Positions 3,539 to 61,310 of a DNA stretch of 64,000 nt are shown piece after piece. The DNA lies in the NCBI RefSeq assembly GCF_055900595.2, contig NZ_CM148325.1. One strand, given 5' to 3'. Position numbers and translations under genes: made by a program. How positions within the stretch are numbered: position 1 is the first letter of the stretch; each line of letters begins with the position of its first letter. A model generated the notes under the pieces. It was given only the letters and a program-made list of their open reading frames with translations. It did no database searches and was not told the DNA's origin.

Positions 3539-3645
3539 ACCGGCTCCTTATCAGAGAATTGTTAGTGTGGCAGCATGTTCACTACAGAACAAGTCGGAAT
3601 AAAAGCTAATAAATATCCTCCGGCATAGCCGGAGGTTTTTCAAAT

Positions 3646-4358
3646 GCGCCTGTAAGGCTCTGTTACCAGCCGCGCCCTAACAGGCGCATACGATCTGACA
3701 TTTGCATTCAACTTCGTTACTTACGGCCCGTAAACGGGCTGCCCGGATATGGAATCGATAACTGCTCCCCCATTTTATCCTCTTCAAGCTGGTGCTTTAT
3801 GTAGTCCTGTATCTTCGCCGTGTTCTTACCCACCGTATCGACATAGTACCCTCGGCACCAGAACTCCCTGTTTCTGTATTTGAATTTCAAATCCCCAAAC
3901 TGCTCGTAAAGCATCAGACTGCTTTTCCCTTTCAGATATCCCATAAAGCCGGATACGCTCATTTTGGGTGGGATTTCCACAAGCATATGGATATGATCTG
4001 CGCAGCACTCTGCTTCCAGAATCCGTACGCTTTTCCACTCACACAGCTTTCTCAAAATACTGCCTATCGCCCTACGCTTCTCTCCGTAAAACGCCAGTCT
4101 TCGGTATTTCGGCGCAAAAACTATGTGATATTTACAGTTCCAGCGGGTGTGCGCTAAGCTCTTTTCGTCCCCCATTGGGACCCCCTTTTGATTTCTTGTT
4201 TGACACTTGCAGTTGCCAGACCGCAAGGTGTTTTAACAAATCAAAAGGGGTTTTAATAACTGGCTCAAAGCTGAAAGCTTTCCGGAACCCCCAGCCTAGC
4301 TGGGGGTTTTCTGTGCACAAGAAAAAAGGCCCGCAAGCGGACCTTTTATAAGGGTGGG
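3646..4358 (-). mobile_element. IS200-type insertion sequence (IS200/IS605 family, tnpA only); boundaries approximate (about +/-40 bp)
   Basis: Intact Y1/HuH transposase ORF, stem-loop sequestering its ribosome-binding site (around 4180..4240), perfect palindrome AACCCCCAGCCTAGCTGGGGGTT at 4284..4306, imperfect hairpins near both ends. The fabF-pabC gap is 830 bp here versus roughly 120 bp as I recall for K-12. Confidence 0.75.
3717..4175 (-). CDS. tnpA: IS200 transposase TnpA (Y1 HuH single-strand transposase)
   Basis: 152 aa from MGDEKSLAHTRWNCKYHIVFAPKYRR, with HIHMLVEIPP HuH motif and catalytic-Tyr region; ORF track begins 17 codons upstream. Confidence 0.9.
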   Translation of the reverse strand: MGDEKSLAHTRWNCKYHIVFAPKYRRLAFYGEKRRAIGSILRKLCEWKSVRILEAECCADHIHMLVEIPPKMSVSGFMGYLKGKSSLMLYEQFGDLKFKYRNREFWCRGYYVDTVGKNTAKIQDYIKHQLEEDKMGEQLSIPYPGSPFTGRK

Positions 4359-10767: not shown

Positions 10768-10953
10768 TTAACTTTGTAACGTCATAGAGTCAAAGAAAAA
10801 GGCAGCCTGTGGTTGCCTTTTGCCAATAATTCGCACACATTGCGGGTTACTGCTTTATTTTCGTTCAGTGCTGATAACGAACATCAACCTGCAAAACGAA
10901 GCGCATAGTTTAAAATGGCTATCATCAATACGCTATATCTGTTGGAAAAAAAT

Positions 10954-11538
10954 ATGCCTAAACTTATTTTAGCCTCCACCTCGCCCTGGCGTCGCGCTCT
11001 TCTGGAAAAACTGCAAATCTCTTTTGAATGTGCAGCACCCGAGGTCGACGAAACCCCACGCAGTGACGAATCACCGCGACAGTTGGTGCTTCGACTGGCG
11101 CAGGAAAAAGCGCAATCTCTGGCGTCACGTTATCCGGATCATTTAATTATTGGTTCAGACCAGGTATGTGTTCTTGATGGCGAAATCACCGGTAAACCGT
11201 TAACGGAAGAAAATGCCCGTCTGCAATTACGCAAAGCCAGCGGCAATATCGTCACCTTCTATACTGGCCTGGCGTTGTTTAATTCGGCGAATGGGCATCT
11301 GCAAACAGAAGTGGAGCCTTTTGACGTCCATTTCCGTCACCTGAGCGAGGCGGAGATTGATAATTACGTGCGTAAGGAGCATCCCCTGCACTGTGCGGGT
11401 AGCTTTAAGAGTGAAGGATTTGGCATTACGCTGTTTGAGCGTTTAGAAGGGCGTGACCCTAACACGCTGGTTGGTTTACCGCTAATCGCGCTGTGTCAGA
11501 TGTTACGTCGGGAAGGGAAAAATCCGCTGATGGGATAG
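10954..11538 (+). CDS. yceF: Maf-like nucleotide pyrophosphatase YceF
   Basis: ORF track 10915..11538 trimmed to [14 protein letters not shown] (194 aa). Confidence 0.9.
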
Positions 11539-12819: not shown

Positions 12820-13181
12820 CGTTTCCGTGTCCATCCTTGTTAAAACAAGAAATTTTACGGAATAACCCATTTTGCCCGACCGATCATCCACGCAGCAATG
12901 GCGTAAGACGTATTGATCTTTCAGGCAGTTAGCGGGCTGCGGGTTGCAGTCCTTACCGGTAGATGGAAATATTTCTGGAGAGTAATACCCAGTCTGTTTC
13001 TTTGATAATTGCGCTGTTTTTCCGCATGAAAAACGGGCAACCGACACTCTGCGCCTCTTTGAGCTGACGATAACCGTGAGGTTGGCGACGCGACTAGACA
13101 CGAGGCCATCGGTTCACACCCGGAAAGGCGTTACTTTGCCCGCAGCTTAGTCGTCAATGTAAGAATAATGAGTAAGTTACG
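12820..13181 (+). promoter_or_regulatory. rne promoter and long structured 5' leader (RNase E autoregulation); extent approximate
   Basis: 572-bp divergent rluC/rne spacer; leader length of about 360 nt is from established knowledge of rne, not measured here. Confidence 0.5.
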
Positions 13182-29806: not shown

Positions 29807-30730
29807 TTATTCACTCATCGCATCGCGCCAGATCTTGTCAACGATACGTTGCGCCAGCACGGCCTGTTCTCCGGCAGTTTGTGGAACTGTCTGATTTTGC
29901 ACGCAATCAATGAAGTGACGCGCACAGCCAACAAATCCACGTTGCTCAAGAGTACTCTGCCAACCTGGAATAGGTTTATGCACCACGCCCTGCCCGCGCT
30001 CCTCACACCATTCGCGCATATCTATAATGTCGATGAGCGCACCGTCAGTCACGGCCTGCACGGCTTCACGCTGACTTCCGGCACGGCGATGCATACAGGT
30101 GGTAATCTGCAAAGGACCGGCCGAAAAATGGTGCTCGGCAAACAGCATTTCGCCCACGTCGTTAGTCAGTAGCATACCGCCATCCAGAGAGGCTTTGCCG
30201 CTCGACAACCACAGCGCGGTATCCACCACATGCAGATAATCATCCAGCAACGTGAAATAAAGGTCGTGTGGCCCGACGCTATTACTACGATGTTTATCCA
30301 TTCTTAGCGAGGCTGCGGTGGCAAGTTGCGTTTTTAACTCACCGTAGAGTGGTGCGAAACGACGGTTAAAACCGACCATCAACGTCAGTTTTTTCCGCGC
30401 CGCCAGTTCAACCAGCCGTTCAGCATCGCGCAGATTTTCTGCCAGCGGTTTATCGACGCAGACATGTACCCCCGCATTGAGTAACGCACTGACCACGTCA
30501 AAGTGGCTGGCGGTGCTGGAATGCACAAAAACAGCGTCACAACAGGCAGCAAGGCTGGATAACGAATCGGCATAAGGAATGCGCCAGCTTTCACAAATTG
30601 GCAGAGCTTTCGCGCGCGTTGGCGACCACGCACCTTGTAACGTCCAGTCAGACGCTGCCGCCAGCACCGGTAACCACGCCTTTTGCGCGATGCCGCCTAA
30701 CCCCACTACGCCGATACGTAATTTTTTCAC
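29807..30730 (-). CDS. yceM: Gfo/Idh/MocA-family oxidoreductase YceM (MviM)
   Basis: Rossmann motif GVVGLGGIAQKA; start assigned to GTG giving (M)KKLRIGVVG (307 aa), just after yceH stop. Confidence 0.85.
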   Translation of the reverse strand: MKKLRIGVVGLGGIAQKAWLPVLAAASDWTLQGAWSPTRAKALPICESWRIPYADSLSSLAACCDAVFVHSSTASHFDVVSALLNAGVHVCVDKPLAENLRDAERLVELAARKKLTLMVGFNRRFAPLYGELKTQLATAASLRMDKHRSNSVGPHDLYFTLLDDYLHVVDTALWLSSGKASLDGGMLLTNDVGEMLFAEHHFSAGPLQITTCMHRRAGSQREAVQAVTDGALIDIIDMREWCEERGQGVVHKPIPGWQSTLEQRGFVGCARHFIDCVQNQTVPQTAGEQAVLAQRIVDKIWRDAMSE

Positions 30731-30731
30731 T

Positions 30732-31974
<1,243 letters not shown>

Positions 31975-32209
31975 TCTATACCTACTCCTTCCCGTAACGT
32001 CTTTAATACGCTGTAAGTATTACTATACCTGCGCAACCAGACCCTGTGAAAAGTCCAGAATGCCATTTTCTGCATTATTCACATATTTGATAAAAACTCT
32101 CTATCAAAGCGACGTTTTGATAAAAAAATATTGTCCCCGAAGTGATGGGAAAAGTCATAGCGGCAATGCAGAATAGAAAGTGCTCATCTTTTATTTCCCG
32201 GGAGGGGAA

Positions 32210-33418
32210 ATGTCCCGCGTGTCGCAGGCGAGGAACCTGGGTAAATATTTCCTGCTCATCGATAATATGCTGGTCGTGCTGGGGTTCTTTGTTGTCTTCC
32301 CGCTGATCTCTATCCGCTTCGTTGATCAAATGGGCTGGGCCGCCGTCATGGTCGGTATTGCCCTCGGCCTACGCCAGTTTATTCAGCAAGGTCTGGGGAT
32401 TTTCGGCGGCGCAATTGCCGACCGCTTTGGTGCCAAACCGATGATTGTCACCGGTATGCTGATGCGTGCCGCCGGATTCGCCACAATGGGTATCGCCCAC
32501 GAACCGTGGCTACTGTGGTTTTCATGCCTGCTTTCGGGACTCGGCGGCACGTTGTTTGATCCTCCGCGTTCGGCGCTGGTGGTGAAACTAATCCGCCCGC
32601 AGCAGCGTGGCCGTTTTTTCTCACTATTAATGATGCAAGACAGCGCTGGTGCTGTCATTGGCGCATTGTTGGGAAGCTGGCTGTTGCAATACGACTTTCG
32701 CCTGGTCTGTGCCACAGGAGCCGTTTTGTTTGTGCTGTGTGCTGCGTTTAATGCCTGGTTGTTACCGGCATGGAAACTCTCCACCGTACGCACGCCCGTT
32801 CGCGAAGGCATGACCCGCGTGATGCGCGACAAGCGTTTTGTCACCTATGTCCTGACGCTGGCGGGTTACTACATGCTGGCTGTACAAGTGATGCTGATGC
32901 TGCCAATTATGGTCAACGACGTCGCGGGCGCGCCGTCTGCCGTTAAATGGATGTATGCCATTGAGGCGTGTCTGTCGTTAACGTTGCTCTACCCTATCGC
33001 CCGCTGGAGTGAAAAACATTTTCGTCTGGAACACCGATTGATGGCTGGGCTATTAATAATGTCATTAAGCATGATGCCAGTGGGTATGGTCAGCGGCCTG
33101 CAACAACTTTTCACTCTGATTTGTCTGTTTTATATCGGGTCGATCATTGCTGAGCCTGCGCGTGAAACCTTAAGTGCTTCGCTGGCAGATGCAAGAGCAC
33201 GCGGCAGCTATATGGGGTTTAGCCGTCTGGGTCTGGCGATTGGCGGCGCGATTGGTTATATCGGTGGTGGCTGGCTATTTGACTTGGGTAAATCAGCGCA
33301 CCAACCAGAGCTTCCGTGGATGATGCTGGGCATTATTGGCATCTTCACTTTCCTTGCGCTGGGTTGGCAGTTTAGCCAGAAACGCACCGCGCGTCGTTTG
33401 CTGGAACGCGACGCCTGA
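32210..33418 (+). CDS. mdtH: MFS multidrug efflux transporter MdtH
   Basis: ORF track trimmed to [21 protein letters not shown] (402 aa). Confidence 0.93.
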
Positions 33419-33481
33419 TTTGATACTCCCCCCTGACTCCTCCATACTGAAAGTGAACTGACAGCCAAATGGAGGAGTCAC

Positions 33482-34129
33482 GTGAAGCTATACATTTACG
33501 ATCACTGCCCTTACTGCCTCAAAGCCCGCATGATTTTCGGCCTGAAAAATATCCCCGTCGAATTACATGTTCTGCTCAATGACGACGCAGAAACACCCAC
33601 CCGGATGGTCGGTCAAAAACAGGTTCCCATTCTGCAAAAAGATGACAGCCGCTATATGCCAGAAAGCATGGACATCGTTCACTATGTCGATAAACTCGAC
33701 GGCAAACCGTTACTGACCGGCAAACGTTCACCTGCCATTGAAGAATGGCTGCGCAAGGTCAACGGCTACGCCAACAAACTGCTGTTACCGCGTTTTGCCA
33801 AATCGGCATTTGATGAGTTTTCTACTCCCGCCGCACGCAAATATTTTGTCGACAAGAAAGAAGCCAGCGCGGGTAATTTTTCCGACCTGCTGGCCCACTC
33901 TGACGGTCTGATTAAGAATATCAGCGATGATTTTCGTGCGCTGGACAAACTTATCGTCAAACCGAACGCCGTGAATGGCGAACTTTCGGAAGACGATATT
34001 CAGCTATTTCCGCTCCTGCGTAATCTGACGCTGGTAGCCGGAATCAACTGGCCAAGCCGCGTTGCTGATTACCGCGATAATATGGCGAAACAGACACAAA
34101 TCAATTTGTTATCATCAATGGCGATTTAA
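33482..34129 (+). CDS. grxB: glutaredoxin 2
   Basis: 215 aa, CPYC active site at residues 9-12; GTG start codon. Confidence 0.95.
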   Translation: MKLYIYDHCPYCLKARMIFGLKNIPVELHVLLNDDAETPTRMVGQKQVPILQKDDSRYMPESMDIVHYVDKLDGKPLLTGKRSPAIEEWLRKVNGYANKLLLPRFAKSAFDEFSTPAARKYFVDKKEASAGNFSDLLAHSDGLIKNISDDFRALDKLIVKPNAVNGELSEDDIQLFPLLRNLTLVAGINWPSRVADYRDNMAKQTQINLLSSMAI

Positions 34130-34262
34130 TCCTGACCCGCCGCGGCAGCCTGTATTCGCGGGTTGCCGCCGTTTTCAGTTTTTTCTGCTGGCGAGTTTAT
34201 CGCTGGTGACACATGCTGCGTTGTGTCAGGATATTGACGCAGATTTCATGTCGAGGACTACC

Positions 34263-34823
34263 ATGAACAAGTTTTTATTTGCCGCTGTATTGTTCGTCAG
34301 TGGCCTGCTCGTTGGCTGTAATCAACTCACCCAATACACCATCACCGAACAAGAAATTAACCAGTCGCTTGCGAAACATAATAATTTCTCAAAAGATATC
34401 GGTTTACCCGGCGTGGCTGACGCCCATATTGTTCTGACAAACCTGACCAGCCAAATTGGTCGCGAAGAGCCGAATAAGGTTACCCTAACCGGAGACGCCA
34501 ATCTGGACATGAACTCCCTGTTCGGTAGCCAGAAAGCGACCATGAAACTGAAGCTGAAAGCGCTGCCTGTGTTTGATAAAGAAAAAGGCGCGATCTTCCT
34601 GAAAGAGATGGAAGTAGTCGATGCGACGGTACAACCGGAAAAAATGCAAACGGTGATGCAAACGTTGCTTCCCTATTTGAACCAGGCATTACGCAATTAC
34701 TTTAACCAGCAACCTGCTTATGTCCTGCGCGAAGATGGCAGTAAGGGCGAAGCAATGGCGAAGAAACTGGCGAAAGGTATTGAAGTGAAGCCTGGTGAAA
34801 TTGTCATTCCGTTTACTGATTAA
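34263..34823 (+). CDS. yceB: DUF1439 lipoprotein YceB
   Basis: ORF track trimmed to MNKFLFAAVLFVSGLLVGC lipobox start (186 aa). Confidence 0.9.
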   Translation: MNKFLFAAVLFVSGLLVGCNQLTQYTITEQEINQSLAKHNNFSKDIGLPGVADAHIVLTNLTSQIGREEPNKVTLTGDANLDMNSLFGSQKATMKLKLKALPVFDKEKGAIFLKEMEVVDATVQPEKMQTVMQTLLPYLNQALRNYFNQQPAYVLREDGSKGEAMAKKLAKGIEVKPGEIVIPFTD

Positions 34824-34829
34824 TCACGA

Positions 34830-34856
34830 GGGCGCATTTGCGCCCTTTATTTTTCG
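34830..34856 (+). terminator. yceB intrinsic terminator
   Basis: GGGCGCATTTGCGCCC hairpin followed by TTTATTTTT. Confidence 0.7.
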
Positions 34857-34861
34857 TGCAA

Positions 34862-34877
34862 AGGAAAACGTTTCCGC
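34862..34877 (+). promoter_or_regulatory. PurR operator in pyrC promoter
   Basis: AGGAAAACGTTTCCGC resembles the PurR palindrome ACGCAAACGTTTGCGT; located about 50 nt upstream of pyrC ATG. Confidence 0.6.
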
Positions 34878-34928
34878 TTATCCTTTGTGTCCGGCAAAAA
34901 CATCCCTTCAGCCGGAGCATAGAGATTA

Positions 34929-35975
34929 ATGACTGCACCATCCCAGGTATTAAAGATCCGCCGCCCAGACGACTGGCACCTTCACCTCCGCGATGGCGAC
35001 ATGTTAAAAACTGTCGTGCCTTATACCAGCGAAATATATGGGCGGGCTATCGTAATGCCCAATCTGGCTCCGCCCGTGACCACCGTTGAGGCTGCCGTGG
35101 CATATCGCCAGCGTATTCTCGACGCCGTACCTGCCGGGCACGATTTCACCCCGCTGATGACCTGTTATTTAACAGATTCGCTGGACCCTAATGAGCTGGA
35201 ACGTGGATTTAACGAAGGCGTGTTCACCGCTGCAAAACTTTACCCCGCAAACGCAACCACTAACTCCAGCCACGGCGTGACGTCGGTTGATGCAATCATG
35301 CCGGTACTTGAGCGCATGGAAAAAATCGGTATGCCGCTACTGGTGCATGGTGAAGTGACACATGCAGATATCGACATTTTTGATCGTGAGGCGCGCTTTA
35401 TAGAAAGCGTAATGGAACCGCTTCGCCAGCGCCTGACCGCGCTGAAAGTCGTTTTTGAGCACATCACCACCAAAGATGCTGCCGACTATGTCCGTGACGG
35501 AAATGAACGTCTGGCTGCCACCATCACTCCGCAGCATCTGATGTTTAACCGCAACCATATGCTGGTTGGTGGCGTGCGTCCACACCTGTATTGTCTACCC
35601 ATCCTCAAACGCAATATTCACCAACAGGCACTGCGTGAACTGGTCGCCAGCGGTTTTAATCGCGTATTCCTCGGTACGGATTCTGCGCCGCATGCACGTC
35701 ATCGCAAAGAGAGCAGCTGCGGCTGCGCGGGCTGCTTCAACGCCCCAACCGCGCTGGGCAGTTACGCTACCGTCTTTGAAGAGATGAATGCTCTGCAGCA
35801 CTTTGAAGCATTCTGTTCTGTAAACGGCCCACAGTTCTATGGCTTGCCGGTCAACGACACATTCATCGAACTGGTCCGCAAAGAGCAACAGGTTGCTGAA
35901 AGCATCGCATTGACTGATGACACACTGGTGCCATTCCTCGCCGGGGAAACGGTACGCTGGTCCGTTAAACAATAA
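34929..35975 (+). CDS. pyrC: dihydroorotase
   Basis: 348 aa, [26 protein letters not shown]. Confidence 0.97.
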
Positions 35976-36011
35976 AAATCGTAGCTTCCTGTTGTCATTA
36001 GGTTATTTTAA

Positions 36012-36027
36012 CTGTATAAATAACCAG
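36012..36027 (+). promoter_or_regulatory. LexA (SOS) box of dinI
   Basis: CTGTATAAATAACCAG fits CTGT-N8-ACAG with one deviation; 22 nt upstream of dinI ATG. Confidence 0.8.
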
Positions 36028-36048
36028 TATATTCAACAGGGGGCTATT

Positions 36049-36294
36049 ATGCGAATTGAAGTCACCATAGCGAAAACTTCTCCATTGCCAGCTGGGGCTA
36101 TTGACGCCCTGGCTGGCGAACTTTCCCGCCGTATTCAGTATGCGTTTCCTGATAATGAAGGCCACGTATCGGTACGTTATGCCGCAGCGAATAATTTATC
36201 GGTTATTGGCGCGACAAAAGAAGATAAACAGCGCATTAGCGAAATTCTCCAGGAAACGTGGGAAAGCGCCGATGACTGGTTTGTCAGCGAATAA
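36049..36294 (+). CDS. dinI: DNA damage-inducible protein I (RecA modulator)
   Basis: 81 aa MRIEVTIAKTSPLPAGAIDAL...; ORF track starts far upstream in the pyrC 3' region. Confidence 0.95.
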   Translation: MRIEVTIAKTSPLPAGAIDALAGELSRRIQYAFPDNEGHVSVRYAAANNLSVIGATKEDKQRISEILQETWESADDWFVSE

Positions 36295-36321
36295 TATGCA
36301 GTGATTTTTGTTTTTGCCGGG

Positions 36322-36346
36322 TCGCCCCGGCTTTTTTATTTTACTT
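36322..36346 (+). terminator. dinI intrinsic terminator
   Basis: GCCGGGTCGCCCCGGC hairpin followed by TTTTTTATTTT. Confidence 0.65.
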
Positions 36347-36583
36347 ACGATTTTCGAGTACAAAATTCCTACACTTCCTCAAAATAATTGCACAATATGC
36401 TAAAAAAATATGAATGACATGCTGTTTTATTGTTCATATAAATCTTAAAAGCAAAAATTTATCTGTTCCCCCCTTTAAAAATTCGGTGAATACCCTTACT
36501 TATTGGTATACTGAAGTTGCTTCAGATAAAAACGCATTGAACCTCGAATAACGTTGTCTAGTAACACGAATTAGGGGGCCATG

Positions 36584-36838
36584 ATGGAAAAAAATAATGA
36601 AGTCATTCAGACTCATCCGCTCGTAGGGTGGGACATCAGCACCGTTGATAGCTATGATGCGCTGATGTTGCGTTTGCATTACCAGACCCCAAATAAGTCC
36701 GAGCAGGAAGGGACTGAAGTTGGTCAGACGCTCTGGTTAACCACTGATGTTGCCAGACAATTTATTTCGATATTAGAAGCAGGAATCGCCAAAATTGAAT
36801 CCGGTGATTTCCCGGTAAACGAGTATCGGCGTCATTAA
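36584..36838 (+). CDS. bssS: biofilm regulator BssS
   Basis: 84 aa MEKNNEVIQTHPLVGWDISTVDSYD. Confidence 0.92.
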   Translation: MEKNNEVIQTHPLVGWDISTVDSYDALMLRLHYQTPNKSEQEGTEVGQTLWLTTDVARQFISILEAGIAKIESGDFPVNEYRRH

Positions 36839-36952
36839 CATGACATGACCATCCACCCAAAAGGCACCTCACTGGTGCCTTTACCATTTCTGGGTTGTAT
36901 ATCTGCATTCAGTTAATTACTCTGCTTAAACCATGAGAGCAGAGAGAAAAAA

Positions 36953-38071
36953 ATGAAATACGATCTCATCATTATTGGCAGCGGTTCCGTAGGCGCTGCC
37001 GCCGGGTATTATGCAACCCGTGCCGGTTTAAACGTGCTAATGACCGACGCCCATATGCCACCGCATCAACACGGCAGCCACCACGGCGATACGCGATTAA
37101 TTCGCCATGCTTATGGTGAAGGCGAAAAGTATGTCCCGCTGGTCCTCCGCGCGCAAACGCTGTGGGATGAACTCTCCCGCCACAACGAAGAAGATCCCAT
37201 TTTTGTACGCTCTGGCGTCATTAACCTTGGCCCGGCTGATTCCACATTTCTCGCCAACGTCGCCCACAGCGCCGAACAGTGGCAACTCAACGTTGAAAAG
37301 CTCGATGCGCAAGGGATTATGGCCCGCTGGCCGGAAATACGCGTCCCGGACAACTACATCGGCTTATTTGAGACTGATTCCGGCTTTTTACGCAGCGAAC
37401 TGGCGATTAAAACCTGGATTCAACTGGCGAAGGAAGCGGGTTGTGCGCAGTTGTTCAACTGCCCGGTCACCGCAATTCGTCATGACGATGATGGCGTAAC
37501 TATTGAAACCGCTGACGGTGAGTATCAGGCGAAAAAGGCGATTGTCTGCGCGGGAACATGGGTAAAAGATCTGCTCCCGGAACTGCCTGTCCAGCCCGTA
37601 CGCAAAGTATTTACCTGGTATCAGGCCGATGGTCGCTATAGCGTGAAGAATAAATTCCCGGCGTTTACCGGTGAACTGCCCAATGGCGATCAATATTATG
37701 GTTTTCCGGCAGAAAACGACGCGTTGAAGATTGGCAAACATAACGGAGGCCAGGTTATCCATTCAGCGGATGAACGTGTTCCGTTTGCGGAAGTCGTCAG
37801 CGATGGCTCGGAAGCCTTCCCGTTCTTGCGCAATGTATTGCCGGGTATCGGTTGCTGCCTGTACGGCGCTGCCTGCACCTATGATAATTCGCCTGACGAA
37901 GATTTTATTATCGATACTCTACCCGGCCACGATAATACACTGCTCATTACCGGCCTGAGCGGGCACGGTTTTAAATTTGCGTCAGTTTTAGGGGAAATAG
38001 CTGCCGATTTTGCGCAAGACAAAAAAAGCGATTTTGATTTGACGCCATTCATGCTTTCCCGCTTCCAATAA
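36953..38071 (+). CDS. solA: N-methyl-L-tryptophan oxidase
   Basis: 372 aa, FAD-binding [15 protein letters not shown] motif. Confidence 0.96.
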
Positions 38072-38091
38072 TCATCATTACGGCCTCCAGA

Positions 38092-38232
38092 ATGAGGCCG
38101 TTTTTACAGGAGTATTTAATGCGTCGGCTGTTGCACTATCTCATCAATAATATTCGCGAGCATCTGATGCTTTATCTTTTTCTCTGGGGACTGTTGGCAA
38201 TTATGGACCTGATCTACGTGTTTTATTTTTAG
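38092..38232 (+). CDS. yceO: small membrane protein YceO (46 aa)
   Basis: Not in ORF track. Reads [46 protein letters not shown]; start overlaps the solA terminator hairpin CGGCCTCCAGAATGAGGCCG. Confidence 0.6.
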
Positions 38233-38493
38233 TTTTTCCGCACTGACATAAACTGACAAATATTTAATCTCCCTTTCATTTAGCGTGAAAAATTGAATGA
38301 GATTCTTCCTGCCTCTACAGCACTCACCAGACCTTCCAGATGCTGAACCCACTAAACTTATGAAGATTCTTTCATTATTAATTCAAAATTATTGAAATAA
38401 AAATAAATATCATTCAATTTGTTATTTTTGTGTTGCAATTCATTCTCCGACACGCCATTTTCTTTCTCTCGCAAATTCTTTTTGGATGCACTT

Positions 38494-39060
38494 ATGTCAT
38501 TCACAAATACCCCTGAACGCTATGGTGTTATATCTGCGGCCTTACATTGGCTAAGCGCAATTATTGTCTATGGCATGTTTGCTTTAGGTCTGTGGATGGT
38601 CACGCTCAGCTATTACGATGGCTGGTACCACAAAGCACCCGAATTGCATAAAAGCATCGGCATTTTGTTAATGATGGGGCTGGTTATTCGCGTTCTTTGG
38701 CGTGTCATATCTCCACCGCCGGGTCCGCTGCAAAGTTATTCGCCCATGACTCGTGTTGGCGCAAAGGCTGGACATCTTGCATTGTACCTATTGCTCTTTG
38801 CCATCGGCATCAGCGGCTATCTGATCTCAACTGCCGATGGTAAACCGATCAGCGTTTTTGGCTGGTTTGACGTCCCCGCGACCCTCGCCGACGCTGGCGC
38901 ACAGGCTGACTTTGCCGGTGCCCTGCATTTTTGGCTCGCGTGGAGCGTCGTAGTACTGTCCGTTATGCACGGATTTATGGCCCTGAAGCATCATTTCATC
39001 GATAAAGACGACACTCTGAAGCGCATGCTGGGAAAGTCGTCATCTGACTATGGAGTATAA
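38494..39060 (+). CDS. yceJ: cytochrome b561-family protein YceJ
   Basis: ORF track trimmed to MSFTNTPERYGVISAALHWLSAII (188 aa). Confidence 0.9.
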   Translation: MSFTNTPERYGVISAALHWLSAIIVYGMFALGLWMVTLSYYDGWYHKAPELHKSIGILLMMGLVIRVLWRVISPPPGPLQSYSPMTRVGAKAGHLALYLLLFAIGISGYLISTADGKPISVFGWFDVPATLADAGAQADFAGALHFWLAWSVVVLSVMHGFMALKHHFIDKDDTLKRMLGKSSSDYGV

Positions 39061-39063
39061 AAA

Positions 39064-39639
39064 ATGAAAAAAAGCCTGCTTGGTTTAACCTTCGCTTCCT
39101 TGATGTTCTCTGCCGGTTCAGCGGTTGCCGCCGATTACAAAATTGACAAAGAAGGTCAGCACGCCTTTGTTAACTTCCGCATCCAGCATCTTGGCTATAG
39201 CTGGTTATATGGCACCTTTAAAGATTTCGACGGTACTTTTACCTTTGATGAAAAAAATCCAGCTGCCGATAAAGTGAATGTGACAATTAACACCACCAGC
39301 GTCGATACTAACCACGCCGAACGCGATAAACATCTTCGCAGTGCGGATTTTCTCAATACCGCAAAATATCCACAGGCAACATTCACCTCCACCAGCGTGA
39401 AGAAAGACGGTGACGAACTGGATATTACTGGCGATCTGACGCTGAATGGCGTAACCAAACCCGTCACGCTGGAAGCGAAATTAATTGGTCAAGGCGACGA
39501 CCCGTGGGGTGGTAAACGTGCAGGCTTCGAGGCCGAAGGCAAAATTAAGCTCAAGGACTTCAATATCAAAACAGATTTAGGTCCAGCTTCTCAGGAAGTG
39601 GATCTGATTATTTCAGTGGAAGGCGTACAGCAGAAGTAA
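39064..39639 (+). CDS. yceI: periplasmic polyisoprenoid-binding protein YceI
   Basis: 191 aa with signal peptide; 3 nt after yceJ stop. Confidence 0.93.
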
Positions 39640-39680
39640 GCGTGAAATGTTGCCGGATGACACGCATCCGGCAATGATTT

Positions 39681-40733
39681 TTATTCTGTTGGATCAGGAA
39701 TGCCCAGTGTTGTATTCAGACGTCCACGAGACTTATTAAAGATCTTATTGCCATTTTCACGTCCTGCCCGACGGCGTCGCTGTTCTTCTGGCGGTAACGC
39801 GCTTTCTTCGCAGCAAATCTCACTGCAACAACCTTTGTATTTTTCTGCACATACTGGACACTGAATAAACAGCAGGTGGCAGCCATCATTTTTACAGTTG
39901 GTATGGCTATCGCACGGCGCACCGCACTGGTGGCAATGCGCGATAATCTCATCAGATATACGTTCGCCCATCCGCTCGTCAAACACAAAATTTTTGCCAA
40001 TAAAACGCACCGGTAAGCCCTGCTCGCGCGCCTTACGGGCGTATTCAATAATTCCGCCTTCGATATGCCAGACTTTATTGAATCCGTTATGTTTCATCCA
40101 GGCACTGGCCTTTTCACAACGAATGCCGCCGGTGCAGTACATAACGATTTTTTTATCTTTATGTTCCTGCATCATCTCGACTGCTTTTGGCAGCTGCTCA
40201 CGGAAGGTATCTGCCGGAATTTCCAGCGCGTTTTCAAAGTGCCCCACTTCATACTCATAGTGGTTACGCATGTCGATAAACAGTGCATCGGGATCGTCAA
40301 GCATGGCGTTCACTTCCGCCGCTTGCAAATACTCACCAACATTACTGGCATCGAAGTGAGGATCGTCAATACCGTCGGCTACGATGCGATCGCGCACCTT
40401 CATGCGCAGTACCCAGAAGGATTTCCCGTCATCATCCAACGCGATATTCAGGCGTAAGCCATCTAAAGCCGGGTCGAAGCCGTATAGCTGTGCGCGAAAT
40501 GTTTCAACATTGCTCGCAGGTACACTGATTTGCGCGTTAATCCCCTCATGCGCCAGATACACTCGCCCAAAAATATTCAGCGCAGTAAACAGCTGATATA
40601 AAGCGTCACGGGTCGCTTTCGGATCGGCGATGTGGAAATACTTATAAAACGAAATGGTGGTGCGCGGTTCGCGCTCAGCCAACATTTTGGCTTTCAGCGC
40701 GTCGTTGGAAATGCGGTTGTGTAACACTGGCAT
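39681..40733 (-). CDS. trhO: rhodanese-domain tRNA uridine(34) hydroxylase TrhO (YceA)
   Basis: ORF track trimmed to [33 protein letters not shown] (350 aa). Confidence 0.9.
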
Positions 40734-40957
40734 GGTGTACGGTTCCTGCGAGATGGGAAAGTAAAAATCCGCGGCATGATATAGCAATTATCGATAATTA
40801 ACATCCACACATTTTACGCTACATTTGCGCATTAAAAATTATTTATTATTTACAAGCGCGGTAATTTCGCCCAGTCTTCAGCCACAAATTTTGGTTGCGG
40901 GCGAAAAAATGCGACAATACATACAATTGCCCGAATAGGTTGAAAAACAGGATTGAT

Positions 40958-41878
40958 ATGACGAATCTACCCAAGTTCTCCACCGCACTGCTTCATCCGC
41001 GTTATTGGTTAACCTGGTTGGGTATTGGCGTACTTTGGTTAGTCGTGCAATTGCCCTACCCGGTTATCTACCGCCTCGGTTGTGGATTAGGAAAACTGGC
41101 GTTACGTTTTATGAAACGACGCGCAAAAATTGTGCATCGCAACCTGGAACTGTGCTTCCCGGAAATGAGCGAACAAGAACGCCGTGAAATGGTGGTGAAG
41201 AATTTCGAATCTATTGGTATGGGGCTGATGGAAACCGGCATGGCGTGGTTCTGGCCGGACCGCCGAATCGCCCGCTGGACGGAAGTGATCGGCATGGAAC
41301 ACATTCGTGACGTGCAGGCGCAAAAACGCGGCATCCTGTTAGTTGGCATCCATTTTCTGACTCTGGAGCTGGGTGCGCGGCAGTTTGGTATGCAGGAGCC
41401 GGGCATTGGCGTTTACCGCCCGAACGATAATCCACTGATTGACTGGCTACAAACCTGGGGCCGTTTGCGCTCAAATAAATCGATGCTCGACCGCAAAGAT
41501 TTAAAAGGCATGATTAAAGCCCTGAAAAAAGGCGAAGTGGTTTGGTACGCACCGGATCATGATTACGGCCCGCGCTCAAGCGTTTTCGTCCCGTTGTTTG
41601 CCGTTGAGCAGGCTGCGACCACAACCGGAACCTGGATGCTGGCACGGATGTCCGGCGCATGTCTGGTGCCCTTCGTTCCACGCCGTAAGCCAGATGGCAA
41701 AGGGTATCAGTTGATTATGCTACCGCCAGAGTGTTCTCCGCCGCTGGATGATGCCGAAACCACCGCCGCGTGGATGAACAAAGTGGTCGAAAAATGCATC
41801 ATGATGGCACCAGAGCAGTATATGTGGTTACACCGTCGCTTTAAAACACGTCCGGAAGGCGTTCCTTCACGCTATTAA
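40958..41878 (+). CDS. lpxL: lipid A lauroyl acyltransferase (Kdo2-lipid IVA)
   Basis: ORF track trimmed to [24 protein letters not shown] (306 aa). Confidence 0.95.
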
Positions 41879-42049
41879 ATCTCCCATGCCGGATGCTTGA
41901 GAATGGCATCCGGCATTCCCACAGCAAATCCTCCTGATTTAGCGATAAAAGCTCTCTGGATTGCGCCCCCTGGAAGTCGGGCGCATAATTAGTGTGCTTA
42001 TCTTTTCTTCTTATGTTCACCGCGCCTGGCGCACCAACAGCGGATTGCT

Positions 42050-53586: not shown

Positions 53587-54340
53587 GTTGTCACCCTGGA
53601 CCTGGTCGTACATTTAAGAAATTAAATCATTTCAACTTGGTTGTTAACGCAACCTGTATTTTGTTAACGCCGCGTTACGATGGAAAGTATGTCTGCGGAA
53701 ATATTTTTAATAACTCACCTGCGCGTTGTATTTTTCTTTTTTTGTTCATACCAAAGTATTAAAACCCACGTAAATACGCTGTTATCTACGCAAAAAAATA
53801 TTTTGTTTTCTTTTAAATTTCGGTTTTCCGCAATCAAAAATCACCAGACAGTCATTCTTCTTGCCCGTCGCTGATTGCTGCGATATGTCTTGCGCACAAG
53901 CCGTGACAAACCTCGTCTTTTTGCAGTAAAAAATTGTCCACGGAGGTGTGGAGAAAAAACAAGAACGTTTTACATGACGAAAGGACTACACCGAAATATT
54001 TTTTATATGCATTATTAGCAAGTTAGCACCATTTGTATGATTTTTTAAAATTGTGCAAGAAAAACCAAATGTACAACTTTTCTATCATTTCTAAACTTAA
54101 TAAAACCTTAAGATTAACATTTTAATATAACGAGTTACATTTAGTTACATGTTTAACACTTGATTTAAGATTTGTAATGGCTAGATTGAAATCAGATGTA
54201 ATCCATTAGTTTTATATTTTACCCATTTAGGGCTGATTTATTACTACACACAGCAGTGCAACATCTGTCAGTACTTCTGGTGCTTCTATTTTAGAGGCAG
54301 CTGTCAGGTGTGCGATCAATAAAAAAAGCGGGGTTTCATC
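53587..54340. promoter_or_regulatory. csgBAC / csgDEFG divergent control region
   Basis: 754-bp AT-rich non-coding spacer between divergent csgB and csgD starts; multifactor regulation is established knowledge, sites not resolved here. Confidence 0.8.
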
Positions 54341-54991
<651 letters not shown>

Positions 54992-58658: not shown

Positions 58659-58715
58659 AACTCTCTCCTGTATTCAATTCCCGCCAAGGATAGCAGGAAA
58701 CCTGATGCTTTATTA

Positions 58716-59159
<444 letters not shown>

Positions 59160-59183
59160 TTATCAAAATCATTAAGTTAAGGT

Positions 59184-59244
59184 AGATACACATCTTGTCA
59201 TATGATCAAATGGTTTCGCCAAAAATCAATAATCAGACAACAAA

Positions 59245-59252
<8 letters not shown>
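59184..59252 (-). ncRNA. IS10 RNA-OUT antisense RNA (position inferred from canonical IS10 layout)
   Basis: Canonical IS10 places pOUT transcription from about nt 115 outward to about nt 47; mapped onto this copy by offset from the outside end. Confidence 0.5.
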
Positions 59253-61028
<1,776 letters not shown>

Positions 61029-61222: not shown

Positions 61223-61310
61223 GGTGAGGTGTCCGAGTGGCTGAAGGAGCACGCCTGGAAAGTGTGTATACGGCAACGTATCGGGGGTTCGAATCCCCCC
61301 CTCACCGCCA
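61223..61310 (+). tRNA. serX: tRNA-Ser (anticodon GGA)
   Basis: GGTGAGGTGTCCGAGTGGCTGAAGGAGCACGCCTGGAAAGTGTGTATACGGCAACGTATCGGGGGTTCGAATCCCCCCCTCACCGCCA: class II tRNA with long variable arm and encoded CCA; hairpin plus T-run terminator follows. Confidence 0.9.

Follow-up and report, generated by a model that had tools for sequence, protein, structure and literature searches.

The yceB-pyrC-dinI region of the Escherichia coli chromosome very probably carries two independent classical repressor operators (probability about 0.93), a PurR operator (PUR box) upstream of pyrC and a LexA (SOS) box upstream of dinI. Both are located in the window, the whole 64-kb stretch of DNA that was analysed. 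The presence, matrix strength, position and conservation of the two sites were computed directly, as was the difference in hairpin energy between two forms of the pyrC leader RNA. When the window was scanned with PurR and LexA matrices, the check proposed along with an earlier sequence-only reading of this DNA, each of the two sites was the best in the window and neither scored low. The PurR operator claimed in that reading is the string at 34862-34877, which has the top matrix score, is conserved and is a listed site (PMC2585596). The LexA box claimed upstream of dinI scores 25.4-26.3 bits, is conserved and is tabulated in K-12 (PMC3009722). The opinion that neither was novel is also correct, as both operators are already in the literature (PMC2585596, PMC3009722); they are known, textbook parts of the purine and SOS regulons of E. 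coli. The main additions of the present analysis are the PyrC leader, the taxonomic limits and sub-optimal sequence of the PurR box, and an A/C polymorphism in the LexA box.

Both operator strings are contained in the yceB-pyrC-dinI-bssS segment of the E. coli chromosome and occur precisely at the positions given in the sequence-only reading, as the outer limits of its interval (34862-36027). A 1.7-kb query found a match in 5425 of 5426 complete E. coli genomes, and the annotation beneath it names pyrC, dinI and yceB. The gene order in K-12 is identical (mdtH-grxB-yceB-pyrC-dinI-bssS-solA), and K-12 and the window share 97.1% identity across 10.5 kb. The pyrC coding sequence (34929-35975, + strand), present in the ORF list and in RefSeq annotation, specifies a dihydroorotase of 348 amino acids that matched the NCBIfam equivalog TIGR00856 over its full length with 558.9 bits (curated cut-off 292.95). 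DNA damage-inducible protein I, the 81-amino-acid product of dinI (36049-36294, + strand), matched the equivalog NF007893 with 178.2 bits (cut-off 111) over residues 1-81 of 81 and is 100% identical to the K-12 protein. Where E. coli DNA is identical or nearly so, its RefSeq annotation likewise names pyrC and dinI. The two operators had been put forward as support for these gene calls. They do agree with pyrC and dinI, but the calls rest far more on the protein matches, which are a much firmer basis. Collinearity of the window with a 100%-identical match, NZ_CP098223.1, was considered and rejected because of a differently placed IS200/IS605 copy and a different right end. This part of the chromosome is ordinary E. 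coli core, and its importance goes little beyond annotation quality.

The PUR box, AGGAAAACGTTTCCGC, occupies 34862-34877 (no strand assigned), 51 nt upstream of the pyrC ATG at 34929. Its halves, AGGAAAAC and GTTTCCGC, form a 16-bp imperfect palindrome with a central CG flanked by AAA and TTT. Self-complementary bases occur at five of the eight symmetric pairs, among them the central CG and the flanking AAA/TTT. The PurR matrix was built from the 28 motif instances in Table 1 of Cho et al. 2011 (PMC3159470), a ChIP-chip study; none of these instances is that of pyrC. With this matrix the pyrC site had the highest score on either strand of the 64-kb window, 16.5 bits when the instances were used as listed and 17.7 bits when the matrix was symmetrised. 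The analytic p-values are 1.2e-6 and 5.9e-7 respectively, equivalent to 0.16 and 0.08 sites expected per window. In leave-one-out scoring the pyrC site was above 8 of the 28 known PurR sites as listed, which is below their median, or above 14 of the 28 after symmetrisation, where it equals the median site. The pyrC PurR site is a mid-to-weak one. It agrees with every fully invariant column of the 28-site set (C8, G9, T11 and C14). G13, present in 27 of the 28 ChIP sites, is absent from the pyrC box in both orientations, the base being C (T when the other strand is read).

A loose search for the PurR string with up to three mismatches gave two matches in the window against 0.79 expected, which is not significant alone. 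The matrix score found at pyrC (p ~6e-7) is significant within the window, but one of this size is expected a few times by chance over 4.6 Mb. Because such chance matches occur at genome scale, the argument for PurR is carried by position and conservation and not by the matrix score alone. Two weak PurR-like matches, at 54734-54749 and 54950-54981, were considered as csgD-csgB intergenic sites and rejected, as both are inside the csgD coding sequence (54341-54991); they are probably chance matches.

With respect to position, the PUR box fills the spacer of the putative pyrC promoter. It follows directly after a -35-like GTGCAA (34856-34861, + strand), assigned from its spacing, and ends 1 nt before a putative -10 element, TATCCT (34879-34884, + strand), with which the Rfam PyrC_leader consensus begins. 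The two hexamers are separated by 17 bp, and in each of them five of six columns are invariant in 18 aligned Enterobacteriaceae control regions. Placement of the box between -35 and -10 is seen at 44% of PurR-regulated promoters (PMC3159470). On its upstream side the promoter abuts the intrinsic terminator of yceB (34828-34857, + strand). This element was found by a terminator scan and consists of a stem-loop (34828-34847) with an 8-bp stem, six pairs of which are G-C, followed by the T-run TATTTTTCGT. In a consensus sigma-70 scan of 34600-36600, no + strand promoter was called for pyrC or dinI. Both were missed because they fall outside the rules of the scan: GTGCAA/TATCCT agrees at 7 of 12 positions, and TATAAA, the likely -10 of dinI, is without the required final T. 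The result thus reflects a limit of the scan and is not evidence against the promoters, all the -35 and -10 elements named here being putative.

The control region continues into the PyrC leader (Rfam RF02372), which spans 34879-34928 on the + strand and matched the model over its full length (1-50) with 68.7 bits against a gathering threshold of 50. Its hairpin has the arms CCGGC (34891-34895) and GCCGG (34911-34915), and the Shine-Dalgarno sequence GGAG (34914-34917) is partly sequestered in it. This hairpin lies within the interval covered by the sequence-only reading, which makes no mention of it. When the CTP/GTP ratio is high, transcription of pyrC is reported to start with C, 6-7 nt past the Pribnow box, and two additional C residues in this RNA complete the hairpin that hides the ribosome-binding site; at a low ratio the RNA starts with G and is devoid of that hairpin (PMC6524683). 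From this statement, the alternative start sites on the + strand are probably C at 34891/34892 and G at 34893. The C-start RNA is predicted to fold with -8.1 kcal/mol, compared to -3.0 kcal/mol for the G-start RNA. The PyrC leader with its start-site switching is the principal pyrimidine control of pyrC.

Conservation of the control region was studied by a PyrC scan of one genome per species, which gave 80 loci, and the PurR box was scored with symmetrised matrices. A box of 13-21 bits, 49-68 nt upstream of the pyrC ATG, was present in 16 of 16 Enterobacteriaceae loci, which include Escherichia, Citrobacter, Kluyvera, Pseudocitrobacter, Enterobacter, a Klebsiella-labelled isolate and Mangrovibacter. 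No PurR match above 6.6 bits was obtained before pyrC in the other Enterobacterales, namely Rahnella, Yersinia, Erwinia, Pectobacterium, Hafnia, Photorhabdus, Brenneria, Rosenbergiella, Edwardsiella and Arsenophonus. In the alignment of 18 Enterobacteriaceae control regions, the PurR box occupies the pyrC promoter spacer throughout; 10 of its 16 columns are invariant and its mean conservation is 0.94, compared to 0.48 upstream of the -35 element and 0.71 in the hairpin loop. Neither arm of the hairpin varies in the same alignment, and the loop differs in both sequence and length. The sub-optimal design at position 13 of the pyrC box is shared by the related genera. Of the 5424 E. coli genomes with a match to the 87-nt pyrC control region, 5357 have the identical sequence.

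It could be argued that the pyrC palindrome is only a conserved promoter spacer, with negligible occupancy by PurR in vivo and with the leader hairpin as essentially the sole control. The deviation from the nearly invariant G13 and the expectation of a few such scores per genome by chance would fit such a view, and so would the pattern in more distant taxa that are without the palindrome. Yersinia, Pectobacterium and Rahnella have kept the right half (TTTCCGC or TTTACGC) adjacent to TTATCCTT at the -10, with neither the left half nor the central CG. Conservation of the right half may therefore be promoter-related in part. Invariance of the left half and the central CG, on the other hand, is limited to sequences with the complete palindrome. 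In Erwinia and Rosenbergiella, moreover, GTGCAA, the -10 element and the CCGGC/GCCGGAG hairpin are all kept around a spacer unrelated to the PurR box. Since the promoter persists there without the box, the box sequence is not needed for promoter function, which argues against a role in spacing only.

The published data also fall on both sides of this question. Of the PurR sites characterised before, ChIP-chip in vivo missed only two, those of pyrC and glnB; in the same work, pyrC expression was changed in a purR deletion (Cho et al., PMC3159470). The reverse complement of the pyrC site in the window, GCGGAAACGTTTTCCT, is among the listed known PurR binding sites (PMC2585596). Repression of pyrC by PurR is credited to two 1990 studies, Choi & Zalkin and Wilson & Turnbough, and is much weaker than that of the pur genes (PMC6245113). 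A consistently sub-optimal pyrC box, as deduced from the alignment, fits both the weak repression in the literature and the absent ChIP-chip signal. Taken together, a palindrome that serves as a promoter spacer only is improbable.

Operators of the LacI family commonly have a central CG and A/T-rich inner positions. The palindrome might on that ground be the target of another LacI/GalR-family regulator sharing the AACGTT core, for example Cra or CytR, and the missing PurR-typical G13 would be in keeping with this. However, the site scores as high as the median PurR site on the symmetrised PurR matrix, and PurR is the regulator named in the published binding data (PMC2585596, PMC6245113). A regulator other than PurR is thus a still fainter prospect than a mere spacer.

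The preferred interpretation of the pyrC palindrome is therefore a PurR operator, and its distribution can be considered together with that of the leader. At the Rfam gathering threshold, no PyrC leader was found in 18 more distant loci. In Erwinia the CCGGC/GCCGGAG hairpin is present on inspection and on folding despite the absence of an Rfam match. For the leaders of Yersinia and Pectobacterium no convincing fold was obtained (z-scores +0.6 to +0.75). From these comparisons, the PurR operator at pyrC seems to be specific to Enterobacteriaceae, added there to an older arrangement of promoter and hairpin.

The second operator, the LexA box, is the 20-mer AACTGTATAAATAACCAGTA at 36010-36029 (no strand assigned), which ends 19 nt upstream of the dinI ATG at 36049. 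The 16-mer picked out in the sequence-only reading, CTGTATAAATAACCAG, corresponds to 36012-36027 within it. The skeleton of the box is CTGT, eight A/T bases centrally and CCAG; the SOS-box consensus is CTGT-N8-ACAG within the 20-bp TACTG(TA)5CAGTA (PMC6590174). The LexA matrix was prepared from the 18 boxes listed before UV-induced genes (PMC3009722 Table 4) after removal of dinI, leaving 17 boxes. Six of these 17 (recN, ruvA, uvrD, cho, uvrB and dinB) also have a CCAG right arm. The loose skeleton CTGT-N8-CCAG by itself occurs three times in the window against 1.28 expected and is not significant alone. On the matrix the dinI 20-mer scored 26.3 and 25.4 bits, with p ~1e-9 and 7e-5 to 2e-4 sites expected per window, and the second-best LexA site in the window reached 12.5 bits. 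About 0.01 sites with such a score are expected per genome, and the dinI LexA box is significant even genome-wide. In leave-one-out scoring it was above 13-14 of the 17 known LexA boxes.

The order pyrC-dinI was found in 25 other species in addition to K-12. In an alignment of 22 of these pyrC-dinI regions, every sequence has CTGT and a right-arm CAG, and the flanks are scrambled. Wherever dinI comes after pyrC, the LexA box overlies the probable -10 of dinI. The LexA and PurR sites alike are phylogenetic footprints. The K-12 box, TTACCTGTATAAATAACCAGTATAT, is tabulated upstream of the UV-induced dinI (PMC3009722), and dinI also figures in a list of known SOS-box genes (PMC6590174). An A/T-rich -10 region that resembles an SOS box by chance, a view to which the commonness of the bare skeleton and the inclusion of the probable -10 in the box would lend themselves, is barely conceivable given the 25-26 bits of the site (~1e-4 expected per window), the invariant arms between variable flanks and the published UV induction. 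No evidence against a LexA box at dinI was found.

The putative -10 of dinI, TATAAA (36015-36020, + strand), is inside the LexA box. It is preceded at a 17-bp spacing by a -35-like TTGTCA (35992-35997, + strand). The sequence CTGTTGT in this -35 region is common to most Enterobacteriaceae in the 22-sequence alignment, and the conservation of the -35-like hexamer as a whole is moderate (0.70). The Shine-Dalgarno sequence of dinI, GGGGG (36039-36043, + strand), has a conservation of 0.88 across the 22 sequences. A terminator is located after dinI at 36316-36341 on the + strand, with its stem-loop at 36316-36331 followed by a T-run. The terminator scan detected none on the + strand between the pyrC stop and dinI, and the post-dinI terminator is the first one downstream of pyrC as well.

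The following scheme is suggested for the two operators. Owing to the location of its box in the promoter spacer, PurR would act by competing with RNA polymerase. PurR with bound hypoxanthine or guanine would do so at the pyrC box, so that plentiful purines would bring about a modest drop in pyrC transcription, the strength of this effect being taken from the literature. This purine control would be superimposed on the pyrimidine control encoded immediately downstream. At high CTP/GTP, initiation at C 34891/34892 would allow the CCGGC/GCCGG hairpin to form and hide the Shine-Dalgarno sequence; at low CTP/GTP, initiation at G 34893 would leave a hairpin too weak to form. At dinI, a LexA dimer on the strong box at 36010-36029 would occlude the promoter by overlapping its likely -10, TATAAA. 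Upon DNA damage, RecA-stimulated self-cleavage of LexA would release the dinI promoter. For actual binding, promoter hexamers, start sites and effect sizes, the scheme draws on the literature or on inference.

Two further points concern the level of DinI. At 36011, position 2 of the 20-mer, the window has A, which is the consensus base, whereas K-12 and E. albertii have C. This natural A/C polymorphism in the dinI LexA box falls where predicted affinity is affected. The matrix score is 25.4-26.3 bits with A versus 21.2-22.9 bits with C, and the heterology index, computed on the 17-site set, is 2.75 versus 4.95. The A is a minority allele: of the 5309 E. coli genomes with a match to the 66-nt dinI region of the window, 207 have it without any change. 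Among the remaining matches, 5089 are at 95-99% identity, and the sampled rows differ by one base. The base equivalent to 36011 is A also in Citrobacter and several other genera. As for the upstream gene, the pyrC-dinI interval is without a terminator in Escherichia/Citrobacter-like genomes and the gene pair is syntenic in 25 other Enterobacterales species, so that read-through from pyrC into dinI may occur. That the A allele is a markedly tighter LexA site than that of K-12, or that pyrC transcripts read into dinI, is taken jointly a doubtful proposition, which is put forward here from the sequence comparisons. Were the first to hold, strains with the A allele would have less DinI at rest and a later induction in the SOS response. 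Were the second to hold, basal DinI would be linked to nucleotide-pool control.

Comparison with known systems places the pyrC site close to the high-affinity pur operators (for example purT and purHD, ACGAAAACGTTTGCGT/C; PMC3159470 Table 1), which are likewise 16-bp palindrome-like sequences. The pyrC site shares with them the invariant central CG, A5-A7 and T10-T12, C14 and the overlap with the promoter. Unlike these operators, it is without G13, is credited with weaker repression in the literature and gave no ChIP-chip signal. To the pyrC control region of K-12 the window is identical over 34845-34931, with the same PurR box, -10 element, hairpin and Shine-Dalgarno sequence; the literature on that region, as cited in PMC6524683 and PMC6245113, includes Wilson et al. 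1992. The LexA box of the window corresponds in gene and position to the K-12 dinI SOS box ACCTGTATAAATAACCAGTA (PMC3009722 Table 4), and 19 of the 20 bases are identical. In Salmonella, where dinI is induced 22.8-fold by nalidixic acid, the box is located at 19 bp from the ATG, which agrees with the 19 nt found here.

The promoter of pyrC was compared across relatives, over the stretch of about 110 nt 5′ of the gene, using the loci found in a scan of one genome per species. In Erwinia and Rosenbergiella, the GTGCAA −35 element, the −10 element and the CCGGC/GCCGGAG hairpin are kept without the PurR box. Of the box, Yersinia, Pectobacterium, Brenneria and Rahnella retain just the right half (TTTCCGC/TTTACGC), adjoining TTATCCTT. 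The loci behind both comparisons are L017, L019, L027, L034 and L016, L018, L020–L025. With promoter and hairpin standing without the box in the first group and a half box in the second, the PurR operator at pyrC (34862–34877) thus looks like an Enterobacteriaceae-specific addition onto an older promoter.

The PyrC leader (Rfam RF02372, 68.7 bits) is located at 34879–34928, within the interval described by the sequence-only reading, which left it unmentioned. The leader is the start-site-switching hairpin and the main pyrimidine control of pyrC. For the C-start RNA, made at high CTP/GTP ratio, folding gives a predicted free energy of −8.1 kcal/mol, versus −3.0 for the G-start RNA, made at low ratio.

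Three of the eight best PurR-matrix matches of the window fall in the csgD coding sequence (54341–54991), at 54734–54749 and 54950–54981, with 12–14 bits; two of the three abut. As each of them is near chance expectation and none lies in a promoter, these matches are probably due to chance.

No intrinsic terminator was found in the interval from the stop codon of pyrC to the promoter of dinI (35976–36048), and the first one downstream of pyrC is at 36316–36331. In an alignment of 22 pyrC-dinI spacer regions (A2), the spacers of Yersinia and Pectobacterium contain apparent hairpin-plus-T-run sequences, as judged by eye. Readthrough from pyrC into dinI may be possible in E. coli. At position 2 of the dinI LexA 20-mer (36011), the window has A, whereas K-12 and E. 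albertii have C; the A allele scores about 3–4 bits above the C allele with the LexA matrix. Of the 5309 E. coli genomes that match the 66-nt dinI region of the window, 207 carry an exact copy.

Identity of the window to K-12 is only 97.1% over 10.5 kb in the 30000–42000 region. Since just 12 of the 5425 complete E. coli genomes reach at least 99% identity over 34700–36400, the comparison suggests that the source strain belongs to a rarely sequenced lineage. Collinearity over the whole window was shown for none of the strains in the collection. The SraB sRNA (10792–10960), the RNase E 5′ UTR element (12821–13157), the ES056 sRNA (54194–54285, just upstream of csgD) and tRNA-Ser(GGA) (61223–61310) are known RNAs expected in this chromosome region.

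An IS10 copy of 1329 bp (59138–60466) interrupts ghrA (ycdW), fragments of which lie on either side (58713–59129 and 60432–61028). It is marked by an Rfam match to RNA-OUT (59183–59252) and by a transposase ORF of 402 aa (59245–60453), and is flanked by the 9-bp target duplication CGCCAGGCC (59129–59137 and 60467–60475). An IS200/IS605-type element is located at 3608–4326, with Rfam STnc490 at 4185–4308. Its insertion point corresponds to the spacer between fabF and pabC in the near-identical strain Z0117EC0005; in that strain the same element is found between mdoH and yceK instead, in reversed orientation.
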